64,000 nucleotides of DNA from a virus. The position numbers and the translations under genes are program-made. This document shows, piece by piece, positions 1,610 to 46,855 of the stretch. The notes under the pieces were generated by a model. That model was not told the origin of the DNA. It did no database searches and saw only the letters and a list, made by a program, of their open reading frames with translations. The DNA is taken from positions 27,266 to 91,265 of IMG/VR virus record IMGVR_UViG_3300002307_000002; one strand, written 5' to 3'. Every line of letters begins with the position of its first letter. Positions within the stretch are counted from its first letter, which is position 1.

Positions 1610-3157
1610 TTACTGGCCTGCGATACATTGGAAGTCGAAGCACCTGTTAGCCCTTAGTATCTGAATACCCTTAGAACTGAAGCGTGTGTATGCGCTCTTA
1701 TCCTGGTCGGTAGACAGTAAGGCTGTACGTGACTCGTTATCAATGTTGAAGCTATTGGTCATTACCTGCAAGCTCTTAGGCATGTTGGTAAGACCCGCAA
1801 TTACACCATGCTGAAAGGCACGGCCTTTTTGCGCTACGTGCTGGATGTTTGGTTGGCCATCGTAGTCATTGTCGTCAATGAATACCATACGGTAGCTTTC
1901 CAGCGGCCAGCCTGTTTCCGGGTGAACATAACCACCAGCCTGTTGTGTCATAGCCACTTGGCCCATGTCAAATAGCGGGTTATGTTTCACTTTTATGTAA
2001 TAACCATCCATGTGGTAAAAGGCATCGAAGTAACCACCTAATGCCAGGTTGTAACCTGTACCAGATACGAATTTGCTACCCACATCGCTTACGCTGCCAA
2101 AGCTCTGGAAGAATGTACCACCAACTTTCTTAATAGCTTTATCAAATGCCCTCATACCGCCACGGCCTGTATGAAGTGTGATGCTGGCACCAGCTGTATC
2201 AGAAAGGCCGAACAGAGCGTCACCAATCTGATTGCTCAGGTAGTCATACGTGAGGTCAGAATAAGTGCTCTTGTTCTGTATCTGCTCCAGCAAGCCAGAA
2301 CCAGTAGGTATCACTTTACCAGTAAGCAAATCTTTCAGTGCAATCTCACCATTGGCAGCACGGTTGTAACGGCTGTACCAGTAGTTGTGTTCGCAAATGC
2401 TTAACCACTCCAGTTCATACTGCCACATGGCCCAGTCCATCCAAACGTCAGTTTCACCTTTGTCGGTTTTAACGTTGATTTTCATAACCTTGTTGGCACT
2501 GTTACCAGCCCAACTAAAGCCATGGCGAAGGAAGCCCATCTGGTTTTTGTATGAACCCGGCATTACCATCTTACCTTCGGTGGTACGAGATTCACTTTCA
2601 GCCACAGCTGTGGTGATAGCTGACCATGCAGCGCCGCTTTGCAATTCAGTCAGCGGACAATAGTCGGTTGGCAGGGCAGCATTGAGGCTTACATTGTATT
2701 CATACTCACCGCTGCCATTCAGTTCACCATCAGCATGCACGTAAGCCTGAATGCCACGGGCAGATTGTATGATGAAAAAGCGCTTAATCCAATTGTCCTG
2801 GAAACGGATTTTAAACTGTGTATTACCGATACCAGGCTTATCACCAGAGCTGTACGGAGTAGAGCTTACGATGGAAGCTTTGGTGATACGGCCCATTACA
2901 GGGTAAGTAAACTGAACGTCATCCAGTTCTACGGCAGCCCTTTTCATAGCATTGCCTTCATAGCCAATGCCGCCTAAGGTCATCAGTGAAATAGGATAGT
3001 TCTTTGTGTAGTCACCCATTATATAGGTGAGCTTCTTGGTGAGTTCGGAAGGGTGACCCTGACGCTGGTGGTAGAAGTTCGTCTCATCCAGCATTGATTT
3101 GCTGTCAAAGATTGCCTCGGTCACCTGGTATTTAAGGGCCGGCATAGGATTAGCCAT
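1610..3157 (-). CDS. major capsid protein (crAss-like)
   Basis: 515 aa, with motifs IPTGSGLLEQI, LHTGRGG and HNPLFD typical of crAss-like MCPs. Follows portal and scaffold genes and is followed by a terminator. Confidence 0.88.
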   Translation of the reverse strand: MANPMPALKYQVTEAIFDSKSMLDETNFYHQRQGHPSELTKKLTYIMGDYTKNYPISLMTLGGIGYEGNAMKRAAVELDDVQFTYPVMGRITKASIVSSTPYSSGDKPGIGNTQFKIRFQDNWIKRFFIIQSARGIQAYVHADGELNGSGEYEYNVSLNAALPTDYCPLTELQSGAAWSAITTAVAESESRTTEGKMVMPGSYKNQMGFLRHGFSWAGNSANKVMKINVKTDKGETDVWMDWAMWQYELEWLSICEHNYWYSRYNRAANGEIALKDLLTGKVIPTGSGLLEQIQNKSTYSDLTYDYLSNQIGDALFGLSDTAGASITLHTGRGGMRAFDKAIKKVGGTFFQSFGSVSDVGSKFVSGTGYNLALGGYFDAFYHMDGYYIKVKHNPLFDMGQVAMTQQAGGYVHPETGWPLESYRMVFIDDNDYDGQPNIQHVAQKGRAFQHGVIAGLTNMPKSLQVMTNSFNIDNESRTALLSTDQDKSAYTRFSSKGIQILRANRCFDFQCIAGQ

Positions 3158-6852: not shown

Positions 6853-8961
6853 CTACCCCAGCATGCTTGTGCTTCCTGCTCCCTGTGAAGCATAGTTACC
6901 CCCAAAGAGTGGTCGGGTGTAAAATCCCTGGTCATCTTCTGTAGTTCTTGATTCCTCTTTATAAGCGTTTTCCTTGAGCATGAACATGGCTAGTCTGCCA
7001 GCGGATAGTCGGTCAGCATTCTTTTCAGGGTTATATTTCTTCATCTCCCGTAACATACCGATGTCATAGCAGCGGTGGATATTCAATATAGGCTTACCAT
7101 CCTCTGTATACCCCCGCACTTTGGTGTGCCAGTTAACCAGATAGGTGATACCTAGCCTGGCTTTTTCTGTACCCATATTCATAAAAATGGCCCGGTTGCG
7201 TTGAGAAGCTGTGGAATTGTATTCCTTGTTATTACCCATCATCTCTGGCTCTCTCTCCAGCTTGTGTAAGAGTTTGTTCGTTTTGGCATAATCCACTATA
7301 CCCTGCCCACCACCAGCTATCTCTGATTGGATGGTACAGTTATAAAGGTCTGATAGCATGAACAGATTGGCGTAAGCTGTATCAAGATTCTGGGGACGGC
7401 CCACATACCAGGCTATCGGCAGTTCCTCATCCACCGGGCTAAGCTGGTTGAATTGCTTCCACACTTGCACTACAAACAGGGAAGTGAGGTCTTCACTCTC
7501 TTCTTTGTAATATGGGTCAACAACTATCTGGTACATTCCATCTGGAACGTTACCACGCTGATCACGGAATGGTGCGGCAACTATTGTGATACAGCCTTCA
7601 AGGTCGTCTTTCTGGTTGTGAGGGTATTGCTCTACTGGCTTAGCTACATCCTTTGGCTGAGGAATGAACATCACACCCAGCTTTTCATCCCTGATGAGAT
7701 GGCCATACCTTAGCATACCCTGTATAGCCTGTTGGGTTTCAATCCTTCTTATCTGTGCATCTACTTCAGCTACATTGAAAGAGTTCTTTCTCAGCCTCTT
7801 GAACGCCTCAGATGGGAACAGTGGATACTCAGCTTTATGTCCGTCAAGTACCTGCGGGTCTTTGGCCTTCTTCTTTTGTACCCGTATCTTTTTCTCACTC
7901 TCAATGGCCATGACAATATCCACGTTACCATTCTCATCCATGAATGTGGACTTGGTACGCCACACCGGTACGAAATATCCACATGTAGTATTCTCAAATC
8001 CAGGTTCCCACACATTGGGGAAAGCAAGCATATCAAAACTTTCCGGGTCATAAAACATATCTTCCAGCCCTTCAATATCCGGGCCTTCTTCACCACCAGT
8101 ACCCAGCACTGTTATCTGTCCTACGTATATGTCACCATCCTTCATAGAACCTTGACACACGTTGTAGGCTTTCTTCAGATTGCGGAGTGAACCACTTTCT
8201 TCAAAGGTTATCTTGCGACCACGTTTGCCTCTCGTCTTATCAGGGTCATCAACTACTACCCCCATGATTTCAGACATGCTACCACGTTCCACCCCGAATG
8301 AATCTACGTAGCTGGCCCTCATGTGCATGAGTGTGTTCTTCTTCTGCCTGTTCTTCTTCCAGTCCGGGCAGTTATCATTCACCCAATCCAGCATTGGTAA
8401 TACCTTATTCAATATACCATCAGTGGTGAGGTACTGTTCAATACCAGCATAGTAGTAGTTTTTGCTGCCGTCTATGAACACGTAATTGTATACTCCATCA
8501 GCAGCTTCCATATAGCTCCATCCTGCACCACGGGCTTTGGCACACACCATGTGCCGGGCCCCGGGGGATTGTATTCCCATAAACTCTCCACCGTGCCAGG
8601 CTATATGTTTAAATCTGTTCCACTCATAGCCTATCTCATAGAAACGAGGAAAGCTGAATATCTTTTCAGCCGTAAGCTTGCCTATCTTGCCCTTACCATT
8701 CTTAGCTTCATTAAAAGCTTGTATACCAATGTTATCCGGCACTTTCCATATAGGGGCAAAGTTCAGGTAGAAGTAATGCCGACCAGTAATCCATGTATCC
8801 CCAATCTTGTATCCTTCTTTACAGCGCTTGGCTTCGATAGCCCAAAACTCTTCCCACTCCCTGCTTCCCACTGGCGCCAAACAATAGCGCCCGCCATTCT
8901 TTGAAAAATCACGGGCTGTGTAAGAAAACTGTGCTGTATTTGTAAGGTTATGCCACCCCAT
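6853..8961 (-). CDS. terL: terminase large subunit
   Basis: ITGRHYFYLNF, Walker A KARGAGWS, Walker B ITFEESG, GTGG, nuclease VDPY and DRLSA motifs. Confidence 0.93.
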   Translation of the reverse strand: MGWHNLTNTAQFSYTARDFSKNGGRYCLAPVGSREWEEFWAIEAKRCKEGYKIGDTWITGRHYFYLNFAPIWKVPDNIGIQAFNEAKNGKGKIGKLTAEKIFSFPRFYEIGYEWNRFKHIAWHGGEFMGIQSPGARHMVCAKARGAGWSYMEAADGVYNYVFIDGSKNYYYAGIEQYLTTDGILNKVLPMLDWVNDNCPDWKKNRQKKNTLMHMRASYVDSFGVERGSMSEIMGVVVDDPDKTRGKRGRKITFEESGSLRNLKKAYNVCQGSMKDGDIYVGQITVLGTGGEEGPDIEGLEDMFYDPESFDMLAFPNVWEPGFENTTCGYFVPVWRTKSTFMDENGNVDIVMAIESEKKIRVQKKKAKDPQVLDGHKAEYPLFPSEAFKRLRKNSFNVAEVDAQIRRIETQQAIQGMLRYGHLIRDEKLGVMFIPQPKDVAKPVEQYPHNQKDDLEGCITIVAAPFRDQRGNVPDGMYQIVVDPYYKEESEDLTSLFVVQVWKQFNQLSPVDEELPIAWYVGRPQNLDTAYANLFMLSDLYNCTIQSEIAGGGQGIVDYAKTNKLLHKLEREPEMMGNNKEYNSTASQRNRAIFMNMGTEKARLGITYLVNWHTKVRGYTEDGKPILNIHRCYDIGMLREMKKYNPEKNADRLSAGRLAMFMLKENAYKEESRTTEDDQGFYTRPLFGGNYASQGAGSTSMLG

Positions 8962-12687: not shown

Positions 12688-12776
12688 TTATCAGCCCCTT
12701 AACTGGGGCTTTCTTATGTCTTAATTATCCTTAACTATAAAACCTTACGGAGATACAGGGTTAACCGTATTAAGCT

Positions 12777-13454
12777 ATGTCACGCAAAATTGTAATCGGC
12801 GACAACGAAATCGAATTGAAAGAAAGTGCTATCAAGTGGACACTTACCACAACACAGGCAGTGTTTAACAAACGCAGGGAGTATTCTGCTGAGCATGCTG
12901 GTTCACGCTTTAAGTTTCTGGTAGGTAAAGCAGGTGCTCAAGTTGTACAGGCTATGGCTGTAGTGAATGCCAAGGGTGAAACTGTAATGGCTGCCAATGG
13001 CTCTGGTGTATTGCTGAAAAAGATTTACAACCTGGTTGCCAACAGTGCAGAGGCTGTAAGAAGGCTTGAGCCGGTATTGATGGCCGCAGTGGATGCTGAA
13101 GAAGGTGGCGACAAAGACCTTGCAGCAGACCTGTACAACTATTACCTGAACCGCACTGCCATCAGCTTCAACGTGTTGAGCACATCCAGCCAGTATGAGC
13201 AGGATTTGTGCATGAGCGAGATTGAGGCTGAGCTTCAGGAAGTGAAAACCGAGAATGGCAGTATCCTGACCATTGCTGCTGGTACTATCAAGGTGCTTAA
13301 AGCTGAGTATGGTGCTAAGGCTGCTGAGCTTCCAAGCAATCCATTTGCTCGTATTGCTGCACAGCGTAAGGCTGCTACCGGGAAGGATGGTAGTGGTGAG
13401 GGTGTGAGAACACATCAGGTGAACATACCTGAAGGTGCTGCACTGACCGTGTAA
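12777..13454 (+). CDS. hypothetical protein
   Basis: 225 aa ORF with codon usage like the highly expressed genes; hairpin downstream. Confidence 0.7.
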   Translation: MSRKIVIGDNEIELKESAIKWTLTTTQAVFNKRREYSAEHAGSRFKFLVGKAGAQVVQAMAVVNAKGETVMAANGSGVLLKKIYNLVANSAEAVRRLEPVLMAAVDAEEGGDKDLAADLYNYYLNRTAISFNVLSTSSQYEQDLCMSEIEAELQEVKTENGSILTIAAGTIKVLKAEYGAKAAELPSNPFARIAAQRKAATGKDGSGEGVRTHQVNIPEGAALTV

Positions 13455-14422: not shown

Positions 14423-14854
14423 ACTGATAGTTTACCTGGTTTAAGATTCAACAAAATTAGAACTTTGGAAGGACATTTTCAAGAAATGTTGAACCCAAAA
14501 TCGCTGAAACCCAATACCAGTAAGGGGTGATGTAGTCTCCCTCTTTATAGATAGGGGTTCACTCACCAGCTTGGGCCAGAATCAGCACAACATGCAGGAA
14601 TTCTGCAAAAACAGGGGGTTGACTACAAGAAATCTGCATGAATTTGGGTTAGTCGCTCAGGCTCCCCGGAACTCCATCCCCTTTTCCCTCTCCTTCCCTT
14701 CCTTTCTCACTCCTTTCTGGAACACTCATTCCTATTCTATCCAGCCATCTCCCACCACTCCTCTCTCCTCAGCTTTTGGATTTTCCCTCTTTCCACCTAT
14801 CTTCGCCCACACAAGCTGAGTGAAAAACTGGACTCAACTCACACATTTCCCACA

Positions 14855-15135
14855 AATCTTTAAATCTTTTCACAATGCAAACAGGTGCTCCTCCCTTCTA
14901 TGTTAATGCAGAGTCTCTTATATTCCTTCACAGGGGTGACATTCTTCCCATATCCAAACAAATAGCAGATAGTCTCAAACGTACAGGTAAATCCGCTAGG
15001 AACACACATGACTGGTCAATTACCTTTCAAGTGTACATTCCTGGCTGTAATGACTTATGTGATCTAAGATACTGGGGCAATGGTAAGATACTCATACAAT
15101 TAGGCTCAGATTTGTAATCTTTAAATCTTTTCACA
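14855..15135 (+). repeat. 20-bp direct repeat AATCTTTAAATCTTTTCACA flanking a small ORF
   Basis: Exact copies at 14855-14874 and 15116-15135. Confidence 0.85.
14875..15117 (+). CDS. hypothetical protein
   Basis: 80 aa ORF between the direct repeats. Confidence 0.5.
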   Translation: MQTGAPPFYVNAESLIFLHRGDILPISKQIADSLKRTGKSARNTHDWSITFQVYIPGCNDLCDLRYWGNGKILIQLGSDL

Positions 15136-15144
15136 TGTTAATAT

Positions 15145-15314
15145 GTATGAGTGGCGGAATTGGTATACGCAACCAGCTTGAGAGCTCCATTCTGGTTTCA
15201 ATGCACCTGACTCGTACTCAGGTTAAGCCGGATAACAGTTACCGGTCACTTCCACCAGGCTTTCCGGGGGTGTAGCATAATTCTCTATTGCAGGTTCGAT
15301 TCCTGTCTCATACA
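15145..15314 (+). ncRNA. enlarged tRNA-like RNA (Leu-type frame, 170 nt)
   Basis: Acceptor GTATGAG/CTCATAC-A, D-arm GCGGAATTGGTATACGC and T-arm GCAGG-TTCGATT-CCTGT, with about 85 extra nt between the D and T arms. Confidence 0.7.
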
Positions 15315-15339
15315 CTTTATTCATAATCAAACTTATTCT

Positions 15340-15714
15340 ATGCTGTTAACTGAAATTGAAGCAGCCAGAGAGAAACAAAGGCTTAGACGTACAGCCTGGG
15401 ATTGGTGGCGGGGTGTACTTACTACTGAACAACGGATACAATTGATGGGTACATATTTTCCTAAATGTAAGCATACCTGGAGACTAAGCTTAGATGATAT
15501 TACAGACATCCAGCAACGTACAACCATCTTAGGCTTGTCTCAGGAATGGCTCAAGGCTATGTCTGCAGACCAGTGGACTACCATCATTGACCAATGGAAG
15601 AAAGTCACCAAAGATTATTCACGCCTGGATTGGTCACCGGCCATGATTGCTACATCAACTATCGCTGTAGAACGTGTTTATAGAGAGATGGTATTGGGAG
15701 AGAATTTTAAATAA
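15340..15714 (+). CDS. hypothetical protein
   Basis: 124 aa ORF. Confidence 0.55.
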   Translation: MLLTEIEAAREKQRLRRTAWDWWRGVLTTEQRIQLMGTYFPKCKHTWRLSLDDITDIQQRTTILGLSQEWLKAMSADQWTTIIDQWKKVTKDYSRLDWSPAMIATSTIAVERVYREMVLGENFK

Positions 15715-15841
15715 TTCCCTCAAAAAGTTTTGTTAATATCAACTCTATCTGTATCTTAGCATTCTCACATCACCCGACCTATTCTTCGCCCAAGCAGGGG
15801 CAAATTACACAATCTTAATTCATCACAACAAACTCATTATC

Positions 15842-16054
15842 ATGCTACAAATATGCCTGATAGGTTACTACGTTACAGTAATCATTGCCTACTTTATAGC
15901 CATACGAAACCACGCTCGTAAAAATTATCTTCACGAAGGTGATTGGGCATCGGTTTTCACAGGTTTAGTCCTTTCACATTCTTGGCCTTTTGTACTACTT
16001 GCCCTATATTTTACAGAACATCCACCAAAACACAAGCCACCTAAATGGCTATAA
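15842..16054 (+). CDS. small membrane protein
   Basis: Two hydrophobic segments. Confidence 0.5.
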   Translation: MLQICLIGYYVTVIIAYFIAIRNHARKNYLHEGDWASVFTGLVLSHSWPFVLLALYFTEHPPKHKPPKWL

Positions 16055-16069
16055 CCAATCCTCACTCCT

Positions 16070-16186
16070 ATGAATCCAGAACAACTCATCAACAACATTC
16101 TTCAAACTTATTTCCTCGTATTGGCAGTATGTAGCGGCACGATTGCATGCTATGGTATTGCCTGTAAGCTGAGGAAGAAAACTTAA
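16070..16186 (+). CDS. small single-TM protein (38 aa)
   Basis: MNPEQLINNILQTYFLVLAVCSGTIACYGIACKLRKKT; below the track cutoff. Confidence 0.4.
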   Translation: MNPEQLINNILQTYFLVLAVCSGTIACYGIACKLRKKT

Positions 16187-16191
16187 ATATT

Positions 16192-16923
16192 ATGGAAATT
16201 ACTCCCAGGTTTCCTGAAGGCACCACTGTGCTCTTTACACTGCATCCTGACAACCCCTCCCCATTAAAAGGGAAGGTTGTAAATTACATTCTTGGATACT
16301 ACAGCAGATTTGCCCGTATAGAATCTGGTAAAATAGAACATGTGGTTAATGAAACTCAAATCATCGGTCCGTACAACGGCACCCATACTTCATCCTCAGC
16401 TGATAGGCCAGAGCAGATTAAGCCTTTTGTTTATAAGAGTGGTGATAAGGTAGTAGTTAAAGCCGATACTACCGGGCATAAGTTTCCAATAGGCACTGTA
16501 GCAGAAGTATCTGCATTTGGACGGGATAACACTCTTTTACTTAAAGGCCCAGGATTTTTTGGAATGCTTAAAGCCGATGATGTAGAATTAGCTTGTACCT
16601 CTAAACTTCTACACCCTGAAACAACTCCTTCTTACAAAGTTGGAGATAGGGTGAGAATTACTACCAACTCACGTTCTCATTTATTTACACCAGGAGATAT
16701 TGGAGTTATTACAGCAATTCATAAGAGTGGAACGTATTCAGTAACGGTAGGCACTGTAGACCAGCTTCTTAGGTCTGATAGTATTGAACCGATGGAAGAA
16801 AGCCTTTCATACACAGCAGACTTGTCATTACATCTTGCCAACTTCTACCAATGGCTTTGCCCGCACCACAGTAAGGGTCACATCGAGCAGACAGTTAACG
16901 AATTTCTAAATTCTCAAACATGA
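16192..16923 (+). CDS. protein with repeated KOW/SH3-like modules
   Basis: YKSGDKVVV...GHKFPIGTV and YKVGDRVRI...HLFTPGDIG repeats. Confidence 0.6.
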   Translation: MEITPRFPEGTTVLFTLHPDNPSPLKGKVVNYILGYYSRFARIESGKIEHVVNETQIIGPYNGTHTSSSADRPEQIKPFVYKSGDKVVVKADTTGHKFPIGTVAEVSAFGRDNTLLLKGPGFFGMLKADDVELACTSKLLHPETTPSYKVGDRVRITTNSRSHLFTPGDIGVITAIHKSGTYSVTVGTVDQLLRSDSIEPMEESLSYTADLSLHLANFYQWLCPHHSKGHIEQTVNEFLNSQT

Positions 16924-17069
16924 AACGTCCTGTAACACCTGGCCATGTGCTTATCCTGGCCTTCATCCTCAGCTATTGTGTACTGGTTACGATAGTTGTG
17001 GTATATAAATGGAAAGATAACCAGATTGAGGTAACACAACAAAACACCAAGCATGTCCAATTACATTAA
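16920..17069 (+). CDS. small single-TM protein (49 aa)
   Basis: MKRPVTPGHVLILAFILSYCVLVTIVVVYKWK...; ATGA overlap with the upstream gene. Confidence 0.45.
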   Translation: MKRPVTPGHVLILAFILSYCVLVTIVVVYKWKDNQIEVTQQNTKHVQLH

Positions 17070-17211
17070 AACTCTTGCTATTCTACCTCTTACAGTGTTT
17101 TGTGCTGGGCCGTAGCCACCTTAACATGGGTAATAGGATTGGTAATAATTACAGCCAGTGTTACTAAGAAGAATTCAAAGAATTGACTAACACATTCAAA
17201 AACAACAAGCA

Positions 17212-17883
17212 ATGACAACAACTATACAGGGTGTGACAATCACCCTCACAGATGAGCAGATAGCTGAGATTGAAAAGCAACAGGCTGCTGCTAAACAACC
17301 AAAATTCAAAGTGGGGGATAAAGTCCGTATATTAGGTTCTACAAGGGCATGTACCAACAATCAAATTGGGGTAATCATAGGTATTTCAAACGATGGGAGC
17401 CTTGAAGTATCTTTTCCACAACCTACTGACTGGTGCCATTACGATCCAAAATGGCTTGAGCTTGTACCTGAAACCATCATGGATAAGGTGAAAAGCTGGG
17501 AAGATGCCGGGAAATTGCTTAACCCTTCTTATTGGGTAATGGACAGTGGCAAAATATACAAAGGGAATAACACTTTCAATAAAAGCGAAGATGTAATAAA
17601 TGTTACTTCTGAGCTTCGTGCTAAATCTATCCGTGCTTATGGGCAGCTTTCAGTGATTGCTGATGCACTAAATGAGGGTAAACTGGGTACAGTCTCAATA
17701 TACTGGAACGAGCGTAACAGCAAGATTGAGCCCTATAGCTATGCAGCTTCTGCTGGTGTGGTTAAGTTTGCTACGTTTGAATTAGCTAACTATGCTATCC
17801 AGCAGTTTGCCCCTCTCTGGTACGATTACTTCATGGTTCCAAACCCCAATCAAGGTTCCGATGACAGCACATGTAATCCATAA
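17212..17883 (+). CDS. hypothetical protein with KOW/SH3-like module
   Basis: FKVGDKVRI motif. Confidence 0.6.
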   Translation: MTTTIQGVTITLTDEQIAEIEKQQAAAKQPKFKVGDKVRILGSTRACTNNQIGVIIGISNDGSLEVSFPQPTDWCHYDPKWLELVPETIMDKVKSWEDAGKLLNPSYWVMDSGKIYKGNNTFNKSEDVINVTSELRAKSIRAYGQLSVIADALNEGKLGTVSIYWNERNSKIEPYSYAASAGVVKFATFELANYAIQQFAPLWYDYFMVPNPNQGSDDSTCNP

Positions 17884-18457
17884 CATTAACCGGCCTGACC
17901 GACTGGCCAATATCATCAAACAAGCTGATGAGCAAGGCTTTGAATTTGAAATACATGCAGCAACCATGGATGAGGACAATCCCGTCCGTGGTTGCCATCT
18001 CTCTCACAGAAAGATAGTCCAGAAAGCTAAAGACGAGGGCTGGCCTTGTGTCTGGATTATGGAAGATGATTGTATGTTTACAGGCCCAGGAGCTGTTAAG
18101 CATTTCCTTAGGAGTATTCCTATGATTTACAGAATTTATACTGGGGGCAGTTATGGGACTCATAAAACATATCATAAAGATGTTTATTACACTTATCCTC
18201 AGTCCATATCTGGTACACATTGTTATATACTAAGAAATTCAGTGTATGGACAGTTTCTTGGTATGGACGAAAATGAGCATTTAGATGTGGTTATAAGCAA
18301 AACTTTTGCACTTGAAGACAAGGTAGCTATTGTAATGCCAGCCCAGATAATAGCGTTGCAGATGCCAGGATACAGCGATATTACCAGACAGGAAGTAAAT
18401 TACAACAACGACAAGTACCTCTGGCAGTACGAGTTGTGGAAAGGAGATGGCGTATGA
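17861..18457 (+). CDS. GT25-like glycosyltransferase
   Basis: INRPDR, GCHLSH, IMEDD, GTHCY and HLD motifs of GT25-like enzymes. Probable start 17861. Confidence 0.75.
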   Translation: MTAHVIHNINRPDRLANIIKQADEQGFEFEIHAATMDEDNPVRGCHLSHRKIVQKAKDEGWPCVWIMEDDCMFTGPGAVKHFLRSIPMIYRIYTGGSYGTHKTYHKDVYYTYPQSISGTHCYILRNSVYGQFLGMDENEHLDVVISKTFALEDKVAIVMPAQIIALQMPGYSDITRQEVNYNNDKYLWQYELWKGDGV

Positions 18458-19050
18458 AAATAGCTGAAAACGGAGCCTGGCTCAACGAGACGAATGAGGG
18501 GCATTGCTTTGACAGTAATTTGGCTGGTGGTATTGTACGTTTTATGGGTGAACACAGCCTAGTATCTGTATTAGACTTGGGCTGTGGAAATGGCTTGTAT
18601 GTAAAATGGTTTAATTCAGCGCCAGAGTTTATAGTGTCATTAGGTGTGGATGGAAATCCACATACAACTGAACTGGGAGGAGTACTTTGTACAACAGCGG
18701 ATTTAAGTAAACCACTTGATATTAATAATTCCATCCACAGGAGTCTGCCACGAATGCAACATTTCAGCTTAATCCTCAGCTTGGAGGTAGGAGAGCACAT
18801 CCCAGCAGAATACGAAAGCACATTTCTCGACAATGTAGTCAAGTATGCCAAAGATTGGATTATCCTAAGCTGGGCAATACCTGGGCAGACTGGCGATGGC
18901 CATGTAAATTGCAGGCCAAACGGCTACATAGCCGGTGAGATGGAAATGCGTGGCTTTGCATCGCAAATGGGTGAGACTGAAAAGCTTAGAGAAGCTTCAA
19001 CTCTGCCGTGGTTCAAAGACACATTGATGGTATTTAAACGAATAACATGA
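18454..19050 (+). CDS. class I SAM-dependent methyltransferase
   Basis: VLDLGCGNG, SLEVGEHI and PGQTGDGHVNC motifs; ATGA-coupled to the glycosyltransferase. Confidence 0.85.
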   Translation: MKIAENGAWLNETNEGHCFDSNLAGGIVRFMGEHSLVSVLDLGCGNGLYVKWFNSAPEFIVSLGVDGNPHTTELGGVLCTTADLSKPLDINNSIHRSLPRMQHFSLILSLEVGEHIPAEYESTFLDNVVKYAKDWIILSWAIPGQTGDGHVNCRPNGYIAGEMEMRGFASQMGETEKLREASTLPWFKDTLMVFKRIT

Positions 19051-19295
19051 TACCAAAAGCTAATATCATTGGTAGAGCAAAAGCTAAACATATACCTGAA
19101 GGAGCAGAGTATGCATTGCTTAGCCATGACCAGAACTTTGTCCAAATATTCATACGTTTCTTCGCTGAAGCTTACAATGATGGTACAACCATTAAACGCT
19201 TGCAGTTTTGGGGAGCCAATCAAAGTTGGGAATACGCTATAGCTGAACAAGAATGGTACACATCTGACAAACGGTACATTCAAATTATAAACTAA
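19047..19295 (+). CDS. hypothetical protein
   Basis: 82 aa ORF with ATGA overlap. Confidence 0.5.
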   Translation: MIPKANIIGRAKAKHIPEGAEYALLSHDQNFVQIFIRFFAEAYNDGTTIKRLQFWGANQSWEYAIAEQEWYTSDKRYIQIIN

Positions 19296-19451
19296 ACGAT
19301 TTCAGGGTCAGAGCGGTAACCAATCCGTGTCATTCCCTGGCCCGACGTCTCAGTGATGAGTAGCCGGGAACAAAAGAGGTTCGACTCCTCAATACCAAAT
19401 CGTACACATGGGTAGTGTGGCGGTGAGGGGTATCAGTGAAAGCCTGACAAG

Positions 19452-19526
19452 TAAACCATAGCTTACAATGGTAGAGCCTCTGACTAATATCAGAGAGATG
19501 TCGGTTCGAATCCGACTGGTTTACCA
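19452..19526 (+). tRNA. tRNA with aberrant anticodon loop (Ile-AAT-like or undetermined)
   Basis: TAAACCA/TGGTTTA acceptor, D-arm GCTT...TGGTAGAGC, T-arm GTCGG-TTCGAAT-CCGAC. Anticodon arm is CTCTGA-CTAATA-TCAGAG with a 6-nt loop. Confidence 0.75.
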
Positions 19527-19728
19527 AGAACAGCAGTATTCATAGGACAACATCTAACGTCTGGGAAGTGGTTCGATGCCATGGGATGGCCAGTTGCTAC
19601 GACTGGTGTCTGAGTGGATGTAGTTATCCAAAGACCGTATGCGTACTAAAGTTGGGTTGAACTGTACGTGAAAGCGTGTGCCAAGGTATGAAACTTACCA
19701 AATAATTACTGTAGCAAGCTGCTGTTCT
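19527..19728 (+). ncRNA. candidate ~200-nt multibranch structured RNA between two tRNA-like elements
   Basis: 10-bp closing stem AGAACAGCAG/CTGCTGTTCT. Internal hairpins CCAGT/ACTGG, TGGAT/ATCCA, ACGT-GAAA-GCGT and GGTA/TACC, plus a T-loop-like GTGG-TTCGATG-CCAT. Confidence 0.5.
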
Positions 19729-19732
19729 ACTT

Positions 19733-19847
19733 GAACTGTTGGTGAAATTGGAAGAGACACAGCCTATTAAGGGGTCGGAGTACAATAGCAAAACCCAAGA
19801 GGTAAACCGAATAACTCCAATTATGGGTTCAAATCCCATACAGTTCA
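19733..19847 (+). ncRNA. enlarged tRNA-like RNA (Leu-type frame, 115 nt)
   Basis: Acceptor GAACTGT/ACAGTTC-A, D-arm GTGAAATTGGAAGAGACAC and T-arm ATGGG-TTCAAAT-CCCAT. The anticodon arm is weak and an extended GGAGT...ACTCC arm follows. Confidence 0.65.
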
Positions 19848-19935
19848 CTTTCAGGTACCGGTTGCGCACACGCTGCAGCCCTGCGCTTTAAAGCCGGTAC
19901 CTCAACTTCTACTTTGTGGTAATCAAGTTAACCAC

Positions 19936-19981
19936 TGTAAGCTGACGCAGCAAAAGCTATGACCGTCAGCTTACATTTTTT
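19936..19981 (+). terminator. terminator closing the RNA cluster
   Basis: TGTAAGCTGACG/CGTCAGCTTACA stem followed by TTTTTT. Confidence 0.75.
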
Positions 19982-20082
19982 CCTTTCGGGCAGAGGCCCA
20001 ATTCCAAACACACAATCTTAATTAACAATCCTCAGCTTGTGAGCTGCAGGATACTTATTTCCTAACACTTAAACATTCAGTT

Positions 20083-20316
20083 ATGCTAATGCTAACATTG
20101 CTTTCAATCAAATTGCCTTTAATGACATTTACCCTGGGCCTGGTTATAGGCTTAATAGCAGGAATTCTTATAACTATTGGGGCTTTCTATGCTGCTCAAC
20201 GAATTAATGAAGATGATGACGGCCAGGATGAAATTGATGGGTATGCTGTACCCATGGACAAAACTTATTTCAAACATCCTCAACCCGCAAAGTATGAACA
20301 CGAAAATGAGAATTGA
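20083..20316 (+). CDS. small single-TM protein with acidic tail
   Basis: FTLGLVIGLIAGILITIG followed by EDDDGQDE. Confidence 0.55.
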   Translation: MLMLTLLSIKLPLMTFTLGLVIGLIAGILITIGAFYAAQRINEDDDGQDEIDGYAVPMDKTYFKHPQPAKYEHENEN

Positions 20317-23534: not shown

Positions 23535-23993
23535 GGGGGTGTACTTGGTATTGACAGCAAGTAATAGACTGGTATCACATGCAAGGCTTGGGAGAGCCAA
23601 ACAACTCCTAAACAACAACTGACACACGTCAAACTGAAGGCGCTGCCATCATCCGTATGGCATTTGCTTCTGAGAAAGCTGTAGCAGCTTAATCAGGTGC
23701 CTGACCAGCATTCTATAAGGTTGATAGTTTGTACGTTCTATCGGGCCAAAAATGTACATCAACAGTTTTCAGCTTCTGTCAAAAGCTGATGGTGGAGTCG
23801 GCCCGCGGGAAACCAACGGCCCCAATTAGTAATCAGAGTGTTTACGAGGTAGTAACGTAATTAAATATATTACTGGCACACCGCAAGGAACAAATTATAG
23901 CCTCAGATTAACCGTGATGGGTAACATCTAAGCATGTAAGAAAGGTATCAGGGTATTCTTGTTTGGACGCCGGTTCGACTCCGGCCACCTCCA
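23535..23993 (+). ncRNA. ssrA: tmRNA (transfer-messenger RNA)
   Basis: 5' GGGGGTG...GGTATTGACAGC and 3' GGACGCCGG-TTCGACT-CCGGC-CACCTCC-A, giving G3:U70 and A73. The internal tag ORF 23621-23692 ends in AVAA-stop. Confidence 0.93.
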
Positions 23994-24021
23994 CAATTAT
24001 CCAACAACTAAAATCAATTTA

Positions 24022-30632: not shown

Positions 30633-31017
30633 CCCTGAATGCCGCTGCTGTGGCCGGGGACGTGAAATCATCTGCCCTACCTGTGCCCAGCTTATGGAAG
30701 ATGGGTACGCCTTTCTTATTGAAGTCAAAGAAGGTGGTACGGCAGAACGTAAAAGCCCCACTGGGTTTGTGATAGCAGTGCATACCGACAATCTGTATGA
30801 GAACAAAGATGCAGATTATCCTATGCAGCCACACATCATTTATTTCATCCAGGTCAGTGACCTTAAAAACTTTATGCGTGGAAGATATTTTGAATTTAAC
30901 AAAACCGCCAGTCACATCCCTACCAGATTTATTGGCCAGCCCTACAGACGTCCAGCTCACGCCCCATCAGCAAGAAAGCCTGAACACGCTGCTTTGCTTC
31001 CTCACGGGGAAAGTTAA
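30568..31017 (+). CDS. hypothetical Zn-binding protein
   Basis: CRCCG...CPTC motifs. Confidence 0.5.
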   Translation: MQTAELTPKTTTPRLQAVQKNDPECRCCGRGREIICPTCAQLMEDGYAFLIEVKEGGTAERKSPTGFVIAVHTDNLYENKDADYPMQPHIIYFIQVSDLKNFMRGRYFEFNKTASHIPTRFIGQPYRRPAHAPSARKPEHAALLPHGES

Positions 31018-31396
31018 AGCACCATTTGCCGTGCTTAGAGGGTTTGCTGGTGTTGGTAAAAGCACCGTAACCAATAAGCTGGTGAATGAACTGAAGAAGA
31101 TAGATGGTGGGCGCATAGGAGTGTGCGCCCCCACTCACAAAGCTATCAAAGTGCTCCGTAAAAATGCCATTCCTGGGATAGACTACAGAACAGTGCATAG
31201 CATGCTGGCTCTTAAGGAGTCAGTAGACCACCGCACTGGTAAGAAGTCTTATGTACCTGACCCACGGAAGCTGGCAGAGGAGCCAGTGTCTGATCTCAGC
31301 TATCTGTTTGTGGATGAGACGAGCATGCTTAACAAGGCCCTGTTCGATTACCTGGTGCCATGGATTAAGCAAGGCTTGAAAGTGGTGTTCATCGGT
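30878..31396 (+). CDS. Dda/RecD-like SF1B helicase, exon 1
   Basis: GFAGVGKS, APTHKA, TVHSML and VDETSM motifs; ends VVFIG at the intron. Confidence 0.88.
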
Positions 31397-31676
31397 GAAT
31401 AGATTGCCGATATAAAATCCCTTTAATTGCTGGAAAATCTTGAAGGCATATCAACTACAACGTAAGCTGAAAAGCTAAGCGTGAATGTTAAAAAATGATA
31501 TGTTATAAGACAATCAGCAGCCAAGTCCCTTTTAACTGGGAAAGGTTCAACGACTATCTCGAAAGAGAGTACATAAGCTCTATATTATAGGCTTTTGGAA
31601 ATGGGGGAATTTGAGAGAAGTAGTCTTTCAAATAAGATATAGTCTGGTCTTACTGGTGACAGTAAGTTAACAAACG
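31397..31676 (+). mobile_element. group I intron (280 nt, no ORF) in the helicase gene
   Basis: P1 ATCGGT/GCCGAT with U:G; core AATTGCTGGAAA, AATCAGCAG, GTTCAACGACTA and AAGATATAGTCT; terminal G. Splicing restores IG|DPAQ (helicase motif III). Confidence 0.93.
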
Positions 31677-32585
31677 GATCCAGCCCAAATAAACCCAGTG
31701 GGAGAGAAGGACTCCATCCCATTCCTTCATGCCTCAGCTTGGGGAGCAGTGATAACTGAGCTCACACAGGCAATGCGACAGAAGGATAGCAATCCAATCC
31801 TGGAATTTGCTACAGCTATCAGGAATGATTACAAGAGTGGCTCATTCACTCCTGTTAATCATCAGCTTTCCACTGGTGAGGGTATAGCACTGATTGATCA
31901 TGCCAGCGAAGAAGAACACAGGCTGCTAACAGAGTATTTTGGTAGCGAGGCATTTGCCGCTGACCCAGATTACATGAAAGTGGTAGCCTGGCGAAATGCT
32001 ACGGTGGACACTTACAACGGCATCATCAGGCGTATCATCTACAAAGATGCTCACTTGTGTGACATTATGAATGATGAAAGGCTGGTGATGGATGCTCCTT
32101 TCAGCATGAACGGCAAGGCTATCCTGAATAACAACGAAGAAATTGTTGTTCTCAGCTCACGTACCGGCACCAAAGGAGTGCAATGGCTGGATAACACTGG
32201 CCCCCGGTTGGCAAGCTTTAAAGTGTACTATGCCATTGTTCAGTGGGAAGCAGAAGGCCGGACAAAAACTGCCACCCTGCCAATCATCCATGAGGAGAGT
32301 AAGACAGACCTGTCCAATACCTTATCCAGCTTGAGGGATATTGCCCTTAAAGCAGATGCCGCTTTCCGTGGTAAAGCATGGAAGCAATTCTTTGAGGTAC
32401 AGGATGCTTTTGCCTGGGTGAAGTACAACTATGCTATTACGGGCCATTCTTCACAGGGCTCAACATACGACAACTGTTTAGTTCTCAAGTGGGATATTGA
32501 CTACAATAAGAACATTGAAGAACGAAACAGGATACTGTATACAGCCTGTACCCGTGCAAAACACACATTATTCATTGAAGCTTAA
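31677..32585 (+). CDS. Dda/RecD-like SF1B helicase, exon 2
   Basis: DPAQINPV, LTQAMRQ, YAITGHSSQGSTY and YTACTRA motifs. Confidence 0.9.
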   Translation, partial: DPAQINPVGEKDSIPFLHASAWGAVITELTQAMRQKDSNPILEFATAIRNDYKSGSFTPVNHQLSTGEGIALIDHASEEEHRLLTEYFGSEAFAADPDYMKVVAWRNATVDTYNGIIRRIIYKDAHLCDIMNDERLVMDAPFSMNGKAILNNNEEIVVLSSRTGTKGVQWLDNTGPRLASFKVYYAIVQWEAEGRTKTATLPIIHEESKTDLSNTLSSLRDIALKADAAFRGKAWKQFFEVQDAFAWVKYNYAITGHSSQGSTYDNCLVLKWDIDYNKNIEERNRILYTACTRAKHTLFIEA

Positions 32586-46015: not shown

Positions 46016-46855
46016 ATGGGAAAAGGAAATGCAATATCAATCGAAGAATACCAAAGGCTTCATTTAGAACATGAATCTGGTGTATGTTTGAGAGATTTAG
46101 CTACTAAGTACAACTACAGATTAGCTACGTTATTTTACGGATTTAAAAGATTGGGGCTTACAGTACATAAAGCTACAAACGAGCAAAGGAAAACGAATAG
46201 AGTTGTTGAAAATTGGTTTAAACAAATTGACACAGAGGTAAAAGCATATTATTTTGGTTTATTGATGGCTGATGGGTATATAAATAAACGTAAACTGTCT
46301 AATAAATCTCATCGTGTATGTCTAAAACTTCATAAAGAAGATAGTTATTTAATACAGTTTTTTATAGACCAGGTTCAACCTGGAGCAAAGATGTATAAAG
46401 ATGGTAATTCTTTAGGGTGTCAAATCAATTCAACACAATTAGTAACAGATTTAGAAAAACATGGACTTGTAGAACGTAAAACTGTAGCTGGGGAACATTT
46501 TCCAATGTTAGATAACAGTTTAATGCCACATTTTGTGAGGGGGTATTTTGATGGTGATGGAAGTATTTCTTTAGGGGCTCGTAATAGAAGTACAATTTAC
46601 ATATGCTGTGCTAATTTGGGGGTACTATATGGTTTTCAAGATTATTTTGATAGGCAGGGGATAAAAACTGGATTACACTCCGAACATCGAGAACATATGG
46701 GATACAGAACAATGCATACTTTACACATCCGTGACCGTCAAAAATTCTATAAATTAATTTACTCGTTTGCTTCAATTTTTATGATACGTAAAAAATTACA
46801 ATTCGACCATGTGAATACCGTGCTAACCAGAAAGAACTGGAAGCGTAGAGCGTAG
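46016..46855 (+). CDS. double-motif LAGLIDADG homing endonuclease
   Basis: AYYFGLLMADG and HFVRGYFDGDG motifs; AT-rich; its 3' end overlaps the intron core. Confidence 0.92.
   Translation: MGKGNAISIEEYQRLHLEHESGVCLRDLATKYNYRLATLFYGFKRLGLTVHKATNEQRKTNRVVENWFKQIDTEVKAYYFGLLMADGYINKRKLSNKSHRVCLKLHKEDSYLIQFFIDQVQPGAKMYKDGNSLGCQINSTQLVTDLEKHGLVERKTVAGEHFPMLDNSLMPHFVRGYFDGDGSISLGARNRSTIYICCANLGVLYGFQDYFDRQGIKTGLHSEHREHMGYRTMHTLHIRDRQKFYKLIYSFASIFMIRKKLQFDHVNTVLTRKNWKRRA

Follow-up and report, generated by a model that had tools for sequence, protein, structure and literature searches.

The three elements E1, U1, and U3 are clearly phage genes that descend from real tRNAs and have lost codon reading. 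They are encoded by a 91-kb crAss-like freshwater phage, 64,000 nucleotides of which were analyzed here (the window). In the comparison with ARAGORN and Rfam that the initial annotation had proposed, ARAGORN called U1 alone, and Infernal matched all three to the tRNA model RF00005. The scores were 36.8 (E1), 48.0 (U1), and 31.9 (U3) bits, all above the gathering cut-off of 29 bits, with E-values against the 91-kb genome of 1.4e-7, 1.2e-10, and 3.3e-6, respectively. We consider it hardly credible that there are no RNA genes here and that the signals reflect small proteins or chance matches. Genome-wide E-values between 1e-10 and 3e-6 argue against this, as does the clear homology of the elements with tRNA-Leu and with class I tRNAs. 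A 46-codon ORF (15135-15272) does start immediately after a duplicated motif shared with the neighbouring gene, and the RNA cluster that contains U1 and U3 overlaps with further ORFs of 50-81 codons; however, none of these ORFs matches a PHROG.

The acceptor stems consist of seven Watson-Crick pairs each (GUAUGAG/CUCAUAC in E1, UAAACCA/UGGUUUA in U1, and GAACUGU/ACAGUUC in U3), G18G19 is present in every D loop, and the 5-bp T arms carry the loops UUCGAUU, UUCGAAU, and UUCAAAU, respectively. The perfect acceptor stems, D-loop GG, and canonical T-arms described in the initial annotation were thus confirmed. The other universal tertiary bases, U8, A14, and A21, are also found in all three. Over the acceptor, D, and T arms together, 46/46 pairs are intact, and the lesions are confined to the anticodon or variable region. 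RNase P, RNase Z, the CCA-adding enzyme, and T-loop modification enzymes recognise tRNAs through the acceptor-T minihelix and the D/T elbow. The evidence supports the view that E1, U1, and U3 have retained precisely what RNase P, RNase Z, and the CCA enzyme read, along with the elbow. Since the acceptor stems are AU-rich, unlike those of host tRNA-Leu, and yet perfectly paired, pairing was kept through many substitutions. U-1 lies just 5' of E1 and U3, both are followed by CUUU, and CCA is not encoded. Applied to 2.7 Mb of fetched DNA, a home-made strict scan (acceptor stem, U8, D arm with GG, and T arm) gave 74 matches, whereas reversed controls gave none. Six of the matches were 95 nt or longer; two of these were E1 and U3, and three of the other four join the ends of neighbouring tRNA copies.

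None of the three elements has the anticodon arm of a working elongator tRNA (5-bp stem, 7-nt loop, U33, purine 37, and standard distance to the elbow), as previously proposed: the loop has 6 nt in U1 and 15 nt in E1, and the stem is broken in U3. The results support the conclusion that the usual mode of decoding is impossible for them. ARAGORN reported U1 as tRNA-??? (aa), with a two-base anticodon that corresponds to the 6-nt loop CUAAUA; this loop may be drawn with 6 or 8 nt, never 7. We considered unusual working decoders, in which U1 reads a two- or four-base codon or the CUCGUAC hairpin of E1 serves as a Thr(CGU) arm, for frameshifting or recoding. This hairpin is normal in appearance (5 bp, 7-nt loop) and is taken as the anticodon arm in the best Infernal alignment of E1, and in G005, a more distant relative, loops of 6 and 8 nt occur in a cluster next to a normal tRNA-Phe. 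However, the hairpin is misplaced, with the ancestral Leu anticodon arm between it and the D arm, U3 has no usable anticodon stem, and the window's long genes stay open when read with the standard code and show no sign of recoding. We regard unusual decoding as very unlikely.

Table 1. Features at the two loci with tRNA-derived elements (all on the + strand; positions refer to the window)
Feature	Position	Strand	Description and basis
Promoter-like phage motif	15116..15136	+	(CACA)ATCTT(T)AA(A)T; ends 9 nt upstream of E1
E1	15145..15314	+	170 nt; class II tRNA-Leu(GAG) derivative; RF00005 and constrained fold
U0	19296..19405	+	Two hairpins, T-arm-like hairpin, AAUACCA, 7-bp closing stem
U1	19451..19525	+	Class I tRNA body; 8-bp acceptor (G-1:C73); 6-nt anticodon loop CUAAUA
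U2	19527..19728	+	202-nt structured RNA; 10-bp closing stem; T-loop-like hairpin 19568-19582
U3	19733..19847	+	115 nt; class II tRNA-Leu derivative; RF00005, alignment with E1 and host tRNA-Leu, constrained fold
U4	19853..19902	+	Very stable hairpin, ~11-bp stem
Terminator-like hairpin	19936..19981	+	Intrinsic type: 12 bp, 16-nt loop, then UUUUUU; ends the RNA cluster

E1 and U3 share the hallmarks of Bacteroidota class II tRNA-Leu, namely, a Leu-type D arm with a 3-bp stem and a long GG loop (13 nt in U3), A73, and a long arm before the T arm. In E1, the 7-bp acceptor stem and D arm are followed by a 6-bp arm, the 15-nt loop of which retains UUGAGAG, and then by approximately 78 nt closed by AUGC/GCAU with three hairpins, the T arm, and A73. 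Positions 5-38 of E1 are 88-96% identical to Bacteroidota tRNA-Leu genes, including tRNA-Leu(GAG), and its D arm differs from that of host tRNA-Leu by one base. U3 retains the anticodon-loop letters UUAAGGG on a broken stem, best drawn as 4 bp with a 6-nt loop, followed by a 42-nt arm (GGAGU/ACUCC with an A-rich 32-nt loop), the T arm, and A73. The corresponding letters in Bacteroidota tRNA-Leu are UUGAGGG, from which E1 and U3 further differ in their disrupted anticodon stem, an extra region of 42-95 nt rather than approximately 15 nt, and an AU-rich acceptor stem. As judged from these sequences, the parents of E1 and U3 were class II tRNA-Leu(NAG), and A73 and the D arm suggest that both may be leucylated by LeuRS.

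U1 has a different parent, a class I Lys/Asn-like tRNA: it shares approximately 79% identity with host tRNA-Asn(GUU), Lys(CUU), and Arg(ACG), relative to which its loop is one base shorter. It had been placed at 19452-19526; the element is real, and the best numbering starts one base earlier, which pairs G-1 with C73. This pair is found in tRNA-His; however, U1 has the CUAAUA loop rather than GUG, and its body is closest to Asn, Lys, and Arg. The proposal of non-decoding tRNA mimics is upheld for tRNA descent and the loss of decoding, but not for membership in one family or system: two elements are class II tRNA-Leu derivatives and one is class I, the inserts lack common sequence and excess folding, and the nearest complete relative has none of the three.

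The extra sequence announced in the initial annotation (about 30-85 nt) is present, at approximately 95 bases in E1 and 40 in U3. However, it is not structured beyond expectation: the inserts alone folded no better than shuffled sequences (z-scores of -0.71 for E1, -0.66 for U3, and +1.57 for the insert of a relative). The E1 and U3 inserts have no sequence in common. Searches of IMG/VR, JGI metagenomes, GenBank phages, and 401 Bacteroidota genomes yielded no homologs of E1, U1, or U3, and the relatives carry no ordinary tRNAs at the positions of the three elements. A GUC tRNA look-alike of an unrelated 171-kb phage (L070:10875-11033) showed no detectable sequence similarity to E1, which has no GUC loop and carries its own Leu(GAG) loop letters. 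The segment 19642-19795 is letter-identical in an independent freshwater run.

U1 and U3 lie in a cluster of RNA units (Table 1). The hairpins of U0 at 19303-19369 are conserved in the closest relative, and its 7-bp closing stem is specific to this phage. Over 79 nt, U0 shares 90% identity with G001, compared with 70-78% in the genes on either side. Where substitutions fall at predicted pairs, pairing is preserved, in one case through changes on both sides, and the remainder are mostly at unpaired positions. The folding z-score of U0 is -2.35. In its conserved U0 hairpins, this locus has at least one RNA element under selection, which favours the punctuation reading proposed below. U1 (z-score -4.76) is followed after 1 nt by U2, which has a minimum free energy of -63.9 kcal/mol and a z-score of -2.46 and stops 4 nt short of U3. 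U2 had no Rfam match at E<=5 and no homolog was found, and the ORFs that overlap it had no protein-family match. The lone T-arm motifs noted earlier exist as T-arm-like hairpins at 19376-19390 (U0) and 19568-19582 (U2). The segment 19848-19937, which holds U4, has a z-score of -3.51 (0/200 shuffles folded as well). The terminator-like hairpin was missed by a consensus terminator scanner because its loop exceeds 8 nt.

The promoter-like motif upstream of E1 occurs five times (13518, 14855, 15116, 15811, and 20014), always on the + strand and before the start of a gene or unit. A 20-nt identical copy at 14855-14874 (blastn-short) precedes the neighbouring gene, and the copy at 20014 is the next motif past the terminator-like hairpin. 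This placement suggests that the motif may be a promoter. E1 follows the motif after 9 nt, and the next ORF starts at 15340, 25 nt downstream of E1. In the cluster, the order is U1, 1 nt, U2, 4 nt, and U3, then the U4 hairpin and the terminator-like hairpin. Of the roles suggested initially, that of processing or stability tags fits this layout best. We tentatively propose, as our best reading, which nevertheless falls short of probable, that E1, U1, and U3 are tRNA derivatives kept for shape only, serving as processing or stability modules after cleavage by RNase P and RNase Z. Host tRNA-processing enzymes would cut at the ends of the elements, providing "tRNA punctuation" in two transcription units, possibly with an effect on RNA stability. 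E1 would separate the promoter-proximal RNA from the mRNA of ORF 15340-15714. In the cluster, U1 and U3 would free U2 (202 nt) with defined ends and separate the RNA units from the glycosyltransferase/methyltransferase message that lies upstream. With punctuation as the role, the anticodon and variable regions would be free to drift and grow, which matches what is seen, and inserts without excess structure fit such regions. In relative G006, the interval from this methyltransferase gene to the next gene also holds a tRNA-like element with an insert, but a different one (CUA in a 6-nt loop, with a T-stem mismatch, still found by RF00005).

However, the reason why the phage would need punctuation at these sites is not evident, and several observations that weigh against it favour decay. 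In this alternative, an unneeded cassette of ordinary tRNAs is in an early stage of decay by insertions and deletions, and the elements and lone T arms have no function; we rate it as possible, though rather improbable. E1, U1, and U3 are conserved in no relative, and the closest complete relative (polymerase 71% identical) is syntenic but lacks them. Locus content differs in every relative examined. Structure in the inserts does not exceed that of shuffles, and one insert has less. The isolated T-arm hairpins of U0 and U2 resemble less lucky remnants, with the U0 fragment ending in AAUACCA like a tRNA 3' end. The aberrant tRNAs of related phages carry the mismatches that decay predicts, in the T stem in G006 and in acceptor stems in G005. 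The genome has no canonical tRNA backed by both tools, as after a general loss of need. Moreover, detection is biased, since a derivative has to retain its acceptor, D, and T arms to be found, and this ascertainment bias accounts for intact copies alone being seen. On the other hand, substitutions are expected to be far commoner than insertions of 40-95 nt, and E1 and U3 each bear several large lesions without the loss of a single acceptor, D, or T pair in any of the three elements. RF00005 would still find copies with one or two mismatches, as it did in G006. A dead region of 700 nt would be unusual in a tightly packed phage genome, and the units abut with a precision of 1-4 nt, framed by a promoter-like motif and a terminator.

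The initial annotation also proposed decoys, and we found no direct support for this role in E1, U1, or U3. It is unlikely, in our assessment, that the elements are off-ribosome mimics, either decoys or sponges for host defences that recognise tRNAs by the acceptor end or elbow and not by the anticodon, or chargeable carriers that do not decode. We similarly doubt, slightly more strongly, that they are deliberate look-alikes, two with a leucine-type and one with a histidine-type end, which soak up or misdirect tRNA-attacking immunity or carry amino acids for non-ribosomal use. The handle and elbow are intact and the decoding end is unusable, with 6-nt loops in U1, U3, and the G006 element. LeuRS ignores the anticodon, E1 and U3 have A73, the E1 D arm is almost that of host tRNA-Leu, and U1 has a His-type G-1:C73, although G-1 opposite C73 arises by chance at a frequency of 1/16. 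Immunity that cuts tRNAs independently of the anticodon exists: Cas12a3 cleaves CCA tails (PMC12851939). Bacterial Schlafen and OLD nucleases cleave tRNAs in or at the anticodon arm (PMC13056530, PMC12445682). If the look-alike reading is true, processed RNAs with added CCA would face Cas12a3-like tail cutters and acceptor-modifying toxins, and Bacteroidota phages would have repeatedly invented a natural "tRNA scaffold" design. However, the elements are not conserved in relatives, no synthetase, ligase, or CCA enzyme was detected among the scanned genes, and the Pfam scans turned up neither a tRNA-targeted enzyme nor a partner gene. Phage tRNAs with altered anticodon loops are known counter-defences that evade or neutralise tRNA-cutting systems, as for T5 tRNA-Lys against PARIS (PMC11464382), retron Ec78 (PMC11555353), and further cases in a survey (PMC10264068). 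They likewise differ from host tRNAs chiefly in the anticodon loop, but they act by decoding, with 7-nt loops, rather than as decoys, whereas the present elements have 6- or 15-nt loops or a broken stem and 40-95 nt of inserted sequence.

Other known RNAs resemble the elements in part. In tmRNA, a tRNA handle (acceptor and T arm) is likewise combined with a large insert where the anticodon arm would be; however, E1, U1, and U3 keep a full D arm and have no G3:U70, pseudoknots, or tag reading frame, and the only tmRNA assigned by cmscan (RF00023) is the phage's own at 23535-23996. Suppressor tRNAs of recoded crAss-like phages do not correspond either, given that no element has a 7-nt loop and the capsid, portal-size, and tail-size ORFs are open in code 11. 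Nor do the elements correspond to intron-containing tRNAs: the only group I intron in the window is at 31387-31666 (Rfam), the inserts measure 40-95 nt, and the relaxed intron models of ARAGORN yield poor anticodon stems. In the region 14900-20100 at E<=5, RF00005 was the only match, with none to YrlA-type Y RNA (RF02553) or other Rfam tRNA-like families. The closest phage parallel in layout is RNA C and RNA D of T4 (species 1 and 2 stable RNAs, rnaC/rnaD), the roles of which are still unknown (PMC3014915). They are likewise small RNAs head to tail with tRNA genes (tRNA-Arg, rnaD, and rnaC at 1-6 nt), an arrangement that favours the punctuation reading, and RNA C keeps a T arm and an acceptor-like stem. 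The likeness is in layout alone, with no shared model or sequence relation: T4 rnaC reaches only 17.5 bits against the tRNA model (tRNA-Sec), whereas E1, U1, and U3 pass the cut-off and their parents can be named. Punctuation by tRNAs and tRNA-like signals operates in mitochondrial transcripts, plant mitochondrial t-elements, and the mascRNA of MALAT1 (Rfam RF01684). We found no description of it for phages in the literature searched. In those systems, non-decoding tRNA shapes cut by RNase P and RNase Z set the ends of neighbouring RNAs, and the spacing of U1-U2-U3 and of E1 and its ORF is consistent with the same arrangement.

All three tRNA-derived elements, E1, U1 and U3, scored above the Infernal cut-off of the Rfam tRNA family (RF00005), with whole-genome E-values of 1.4e-7, 1.2e-10 and 3.3e-6, respectively. 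Each has a fully Watson-Crick acceptor stem (7/7), a 5-bp T stem and a canonical T loop, and U8, A14, G18G19 and A21 are present in each. Across the three elements, 46 of 46 acceptor, D and T arm pairs are intact, and the lesions are confined to the anticodon or variable region. The acceptor stems differ from those of the host, but are nonetheless perfectly paired. The paired acceptor stems, their non-standard sequences and the canonical T arms, together with two lone T-arm hairpins, had been described in the initial annotation, and the observation is real. ARAGORN accepted U1 only, as tRNA-??? with a two-base anticodon, which corresponds to a 6-nt loop. A strict custom scan, which required an acceptor stem, U8, a D arm with GG and a T arm, yielded 74 hits across 2.7 Mb of retrieved DNA, whereas the reversed controls yielded none. 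Six hits were at least 95 nt, including E1 and U3, and three of the other four paired the ends of neighbouring tRNA copies. Part of the U1-U3 cluster is present letter for letter in a second, independent freshwater study; therefore, the cluster is not a one-sample assembly slip. The coordinates of the features are summarized in the following table.

Coordinates of the tRNA-derived elements, neighbouring RNAs and compared features (window positions unless prefixed with a locus label)
Feature	Coordinates	Description	Score
E1	15145-15314	tRNA-derived element	36.8 bits
U0	19296-19405	two conserved hairpins and a T-arm-like hairpin	z = -2.35
Two-hairpin RNA (in U0)	19303-19369; G001 counterpart L026:6641-6719, minus strand	directly 3' of the stop codon of the upstream gene	
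Lone T-arm hairpins	19376-19390; 19568-19582		
U1	19451-19525	tRNA-derived element	48.0 bits; z = -4.76
U2	19527-19728	202 nt, 10-bp closing stem, T-loop-like hairpin	z = -2.46
U3	19733-19847	tRNA-derived element	31.9 bits
U4	19853-19902	hairpin	z = -3.51
tmRNA	23535-23996	approximately 460 nt, phage-encoded	69.5 bits
Group I intron	31387-31666		84.7 bits
tRNA-Gly(CCC) 5' part	52056-52118	acceptor, D arm and anticodon arm; just 5' of tyrosine integrase gene 52168-53292	
G006 tRNA-like element	L031:6607-6768	162 nt, directly after the counterpart methyltransferase gene	32.6 bits
G005 aberrant tRNA genes	L027:6558-6633, 8757-8839, 12734-12956, 13279-13358	more distant crAss-like relative	
L070 tRNA-like RNA	L070:10875-11033	159 nt, GUC-containing loop, branched arm of approximately 79 nt; flanked by a tRNA cluster and a tmRNA	

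The virus comes from a freshwater metagenome, measures 91,265 bp and has direct terminal repeats; the window is its final 64 kb. The phage is crAss-like, with a Crassvirus-family major capsid protein (1610-3157, minus strand), a family A DNA polymerase and an integrase. A polymerase-anchored search of GTDB genomes found a related polymerase on one short contig binned as Ferruginibacter, which suggests a Bacteroidota host. The tmRNA is syntenic with a 346-nt tmRNA of G001, a related phage, and is 84% identical to it over the first 177 nt. The group I intron is flanked by ORFs 30797-31402 and 31698-32585. The second of these encodes the C-terminal part of a UvrD-type helicase, and the arrangement looks like a split helicase gene. 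A LAGLIDADG endonuclease ORF is present at 46016-46855. The tRNA-Gly(CCC) part beside the integrase gene is likely the attP of this crAss-like phage, and a corresponding tRNA hit is present at the syntenic position in G001. Outside the window (C1:3068-3153), ARAGORN called an 86-nt tRNA-Gly(GCC) whose T arm is weak; this call had no RF00005 support at E<=0.001.

The parent tRNAs of the three elements were identified. Positions 5-38 of E1 share 88-96% identity with tRNA-Leu genes of Bacteroidota, with tRNA-Leu(GAG) as the best match; the D arm has a single base difference, and its anticodon loop reads UUGAGAG where the host has UUGAGGG. The 3' strand of the E1 anticodon stem is shifted by approximately 7 nt, giving a 6-bp stem and a 15-nt loop, and is followed by 78 nt with an AUGC/GCAU closure and three hairpins. 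One of these hairpins (CCUGA-CUCGUAC-UCAGG) resembles a perfect anticodon arm and was used as such by the Infernal alignment; the geometry is not tRNA-like because this hairpin comes 3' of the ancestral anticodon arm. U3 aligns in the same Leu frame, with a 3-bp D stem, a long D loop, A73, and UUAAGGG where the host has UUGAGGG. Its anticodon stem is broken (the best drawing has 4 bp and a 6-nt loop), and 32 of the 42 nt in its extra arm form an A-rich loop. U1 is a class I tRNA with approximately 79% identity to host tRNA-Asn(GUU), Lys(CUU) and Arg(ACG), and has G-1 opposite C73. Its loop, CUAAU-A, is one base shorter than the loops of these host tRNAs, and may be drawn with six or eight bases, never seven. 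On the basis of these alignments, E1 and U3 are Leu-derived and possibly paralogous, and U1 is unrelated to either. The proposed "family" applies to a shared design rather than to descent. The elements are non-decoding tRNA derivatives; that they are working decoders is unlikely because the long genes of the phage are open in the standard code.

The extra sequences had also been described as structured. However, no structure was detectable when the inserts were folded by themselves against dinucleotide shuffles (E1, z = -0.71; U3, z = -0.66). Shared sequence was not found among the inserts of E1, U3 and the relatives, and repeats of the inserts elsewhere in the genome were limited to chance matches of 12-15 nt. 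Intron-bearing tRNA models from ARAGORN were discarded owing to their weak stems. A PHROG scan of ORFs overlapping the elements was empty, which leaves these small ORFs without protein-family support. U0, U1, U2 and the U4 hairpin folded better than chance.

The region is arranged as transcription units. Five copies of the motif (CACA)ATCTT(T)AA(A)T are present in the 13-20 kb region (13518, 14855, 15116, 15811 and 20014), only on the plus strand and each ahead of a gene or unit start; the motif is a candidate phage promoter. G001 also carries this motif. The copy ahead of E1 ends 9 nt 5' of the element, its 20 nt are the same as in the copy fronting the neighbouring gene, and an ORF starts 25 nt 3' of E1. 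In the cluster, 1 nt separates U1 from U2 and 4 nt separate U2 from U3; a stable hairpin comes next, and then a 12-bp hairpin and its U-run. E1 and U3 each have U immediately 5' and CUUU immediately 3', and CCA is not encoded. U2 had no Rfam match, and no homolog of it was found. The two-hairpin RNA within U0 also had no Rfam match; positions 19295-19373 (79 nt) are 90% identical in G001, above the identity of the flanking genes. At predicted pairs the substitutions preserve pairing, in one case through changes to both bases; most of the remaining substitutions fall at unpaired positions. Therefore, the two-hairpin element is a conserved RNA.

G001 is the closest complete relative (71% polymerase identity) and is syntenic over 12-24 kb of the window; no tRNA hit was found in this syntenic region. 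At the cluster locus, homology to G001 is restricted to the first 79 nt, approximately 620 nt here replacing approximately 105 nt there, and other genes occupy the position of E1. No homologs of E1, U1, U2 or U3 were found by blastn of 14800-20300 against GenBank phages, by exact and degenerate patterns or neighbour-protein searches in IMG/VR, by blastn-short and nhmmer against the retrieved comparison loci, or by the polymerase-anchored GTDB search. Methyltransferase-anchored loci (IMG/VR and JGI metagenomes) also contained none, with G001/G002 and G006 as the only informative relatives. In BLAST against 401 Bacteroidota genomes, the only matches were ordinary genes for tRNA-Leu, Asn, Lys and Arg. 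When these genomes were scanned with a gapped pattern designed for giant Leu-type tRNAs, nothing was returned but tandem tRNAs and tRNA-Leu genes whose D arm carries a hairpin. In the genomes G184 and G328 (L260, L261 and L267), this hairpin is approximately 19 nt (CCUGUCUGCCGACAGGCAGG) and follows the D-loop GGUAGA motif.

Aberrant tRNA genes recur in this phage group, each private to one genome. The element of G006, a second relative (57% methyltransferase identity), belongs to class I and has a 6-nt loop (UUCUAA, containing CUA), two T-stem mismatches and a purine-rich 92-nt insert before the T arm (z = +1.57 against dinucleotide shuffles). In the G005 cluster, anticodon loops of 6 and 8 nt occur, position 33 can be A or C instead of U, and some acceptor stems have mismatches; this genome also contains an 83-nt element whose anticodon region is enlarged and a normal tRNA-Phe(GAA) at L027:16649-16722.

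These mismatches, the non-conservation of the elements in the nearest relative, the unstructured inserts and the tRNA fragments close by favour pure decay of former tRNA genes. However, the lesions are large (a 7-nt shift and inserts of 40-95 nt), and neutral decay should have broken many pairs before several such events; therefore, the intact pairs favour function, as do the perfectly paired, non-host acceptor stems and the organization into transcription units. The argument from intact pairs is weakened because only handle-intact copies are detectable, and the locus, as a singleton, cannot show selection by itself. Judged from the anatomy, which is the sole basis, we consider a selected shape-based role to be somewhat more probable than pure decay.

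Among selected roles, a processing module is the most likely. RNase P and RNase Z would cut the elements, which would thus act as processing or stability modules. The layout favours this role, and it fits because only the retained parts are needed and the remainder is free to drift. The claim of non-decoding mimics stands for the tRNA origin and the loss of decoding; a processing or stability tag fits the layout best, whereas decoy or carrier roles lack direct support. A decoy or off-ribosome carrier is possible, since tRNA-targeting immunity independent of the anticodon exists (PMC12851939, PMC13056530, PMC12445682). However, Pfam scans of approximately 40 phage proteins revealed no candidate partner, whether a synthetase, an RNA ligase, a CCA enzyme or a Ro-like protein. 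In addition, the phage tRNA genes known to counter host tRNA-cutting defences work as decoders in every proven case (PMC11464382, PMC11555353, PMC10264068).

If selection keeps non-decoding tRNA-shaped RNAs, this would be a second phage use of the tRNA shape, as a processing signal, decoy or off-ribosome carrier. The present locus contributes a clear anatomical example with known parent tRNAs. E1, U1 and U3 join kinds that are already known, namely, the stable RNAs of phage tRNA regions and tRNA-like processing signals. The tRNA-like RNA of L070, from an unrelated 171-kb phage, is similar to E1 in overall size, and E1 likewise has a branched region; however, E1 lacks a GUC loop, shows no detectable similarity to the L070 element, and was not assigned to this type. 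In T4, tRNA-Arg, rnaD and rnaC are arranged head to tail, as in the U1-U2-U3 cluster. The roles of T4 RNA C and RNA D are still unknown (PMC3014915), and this 50-year-old puzzle may gain light if non-decoding tRNA shapes are selected.
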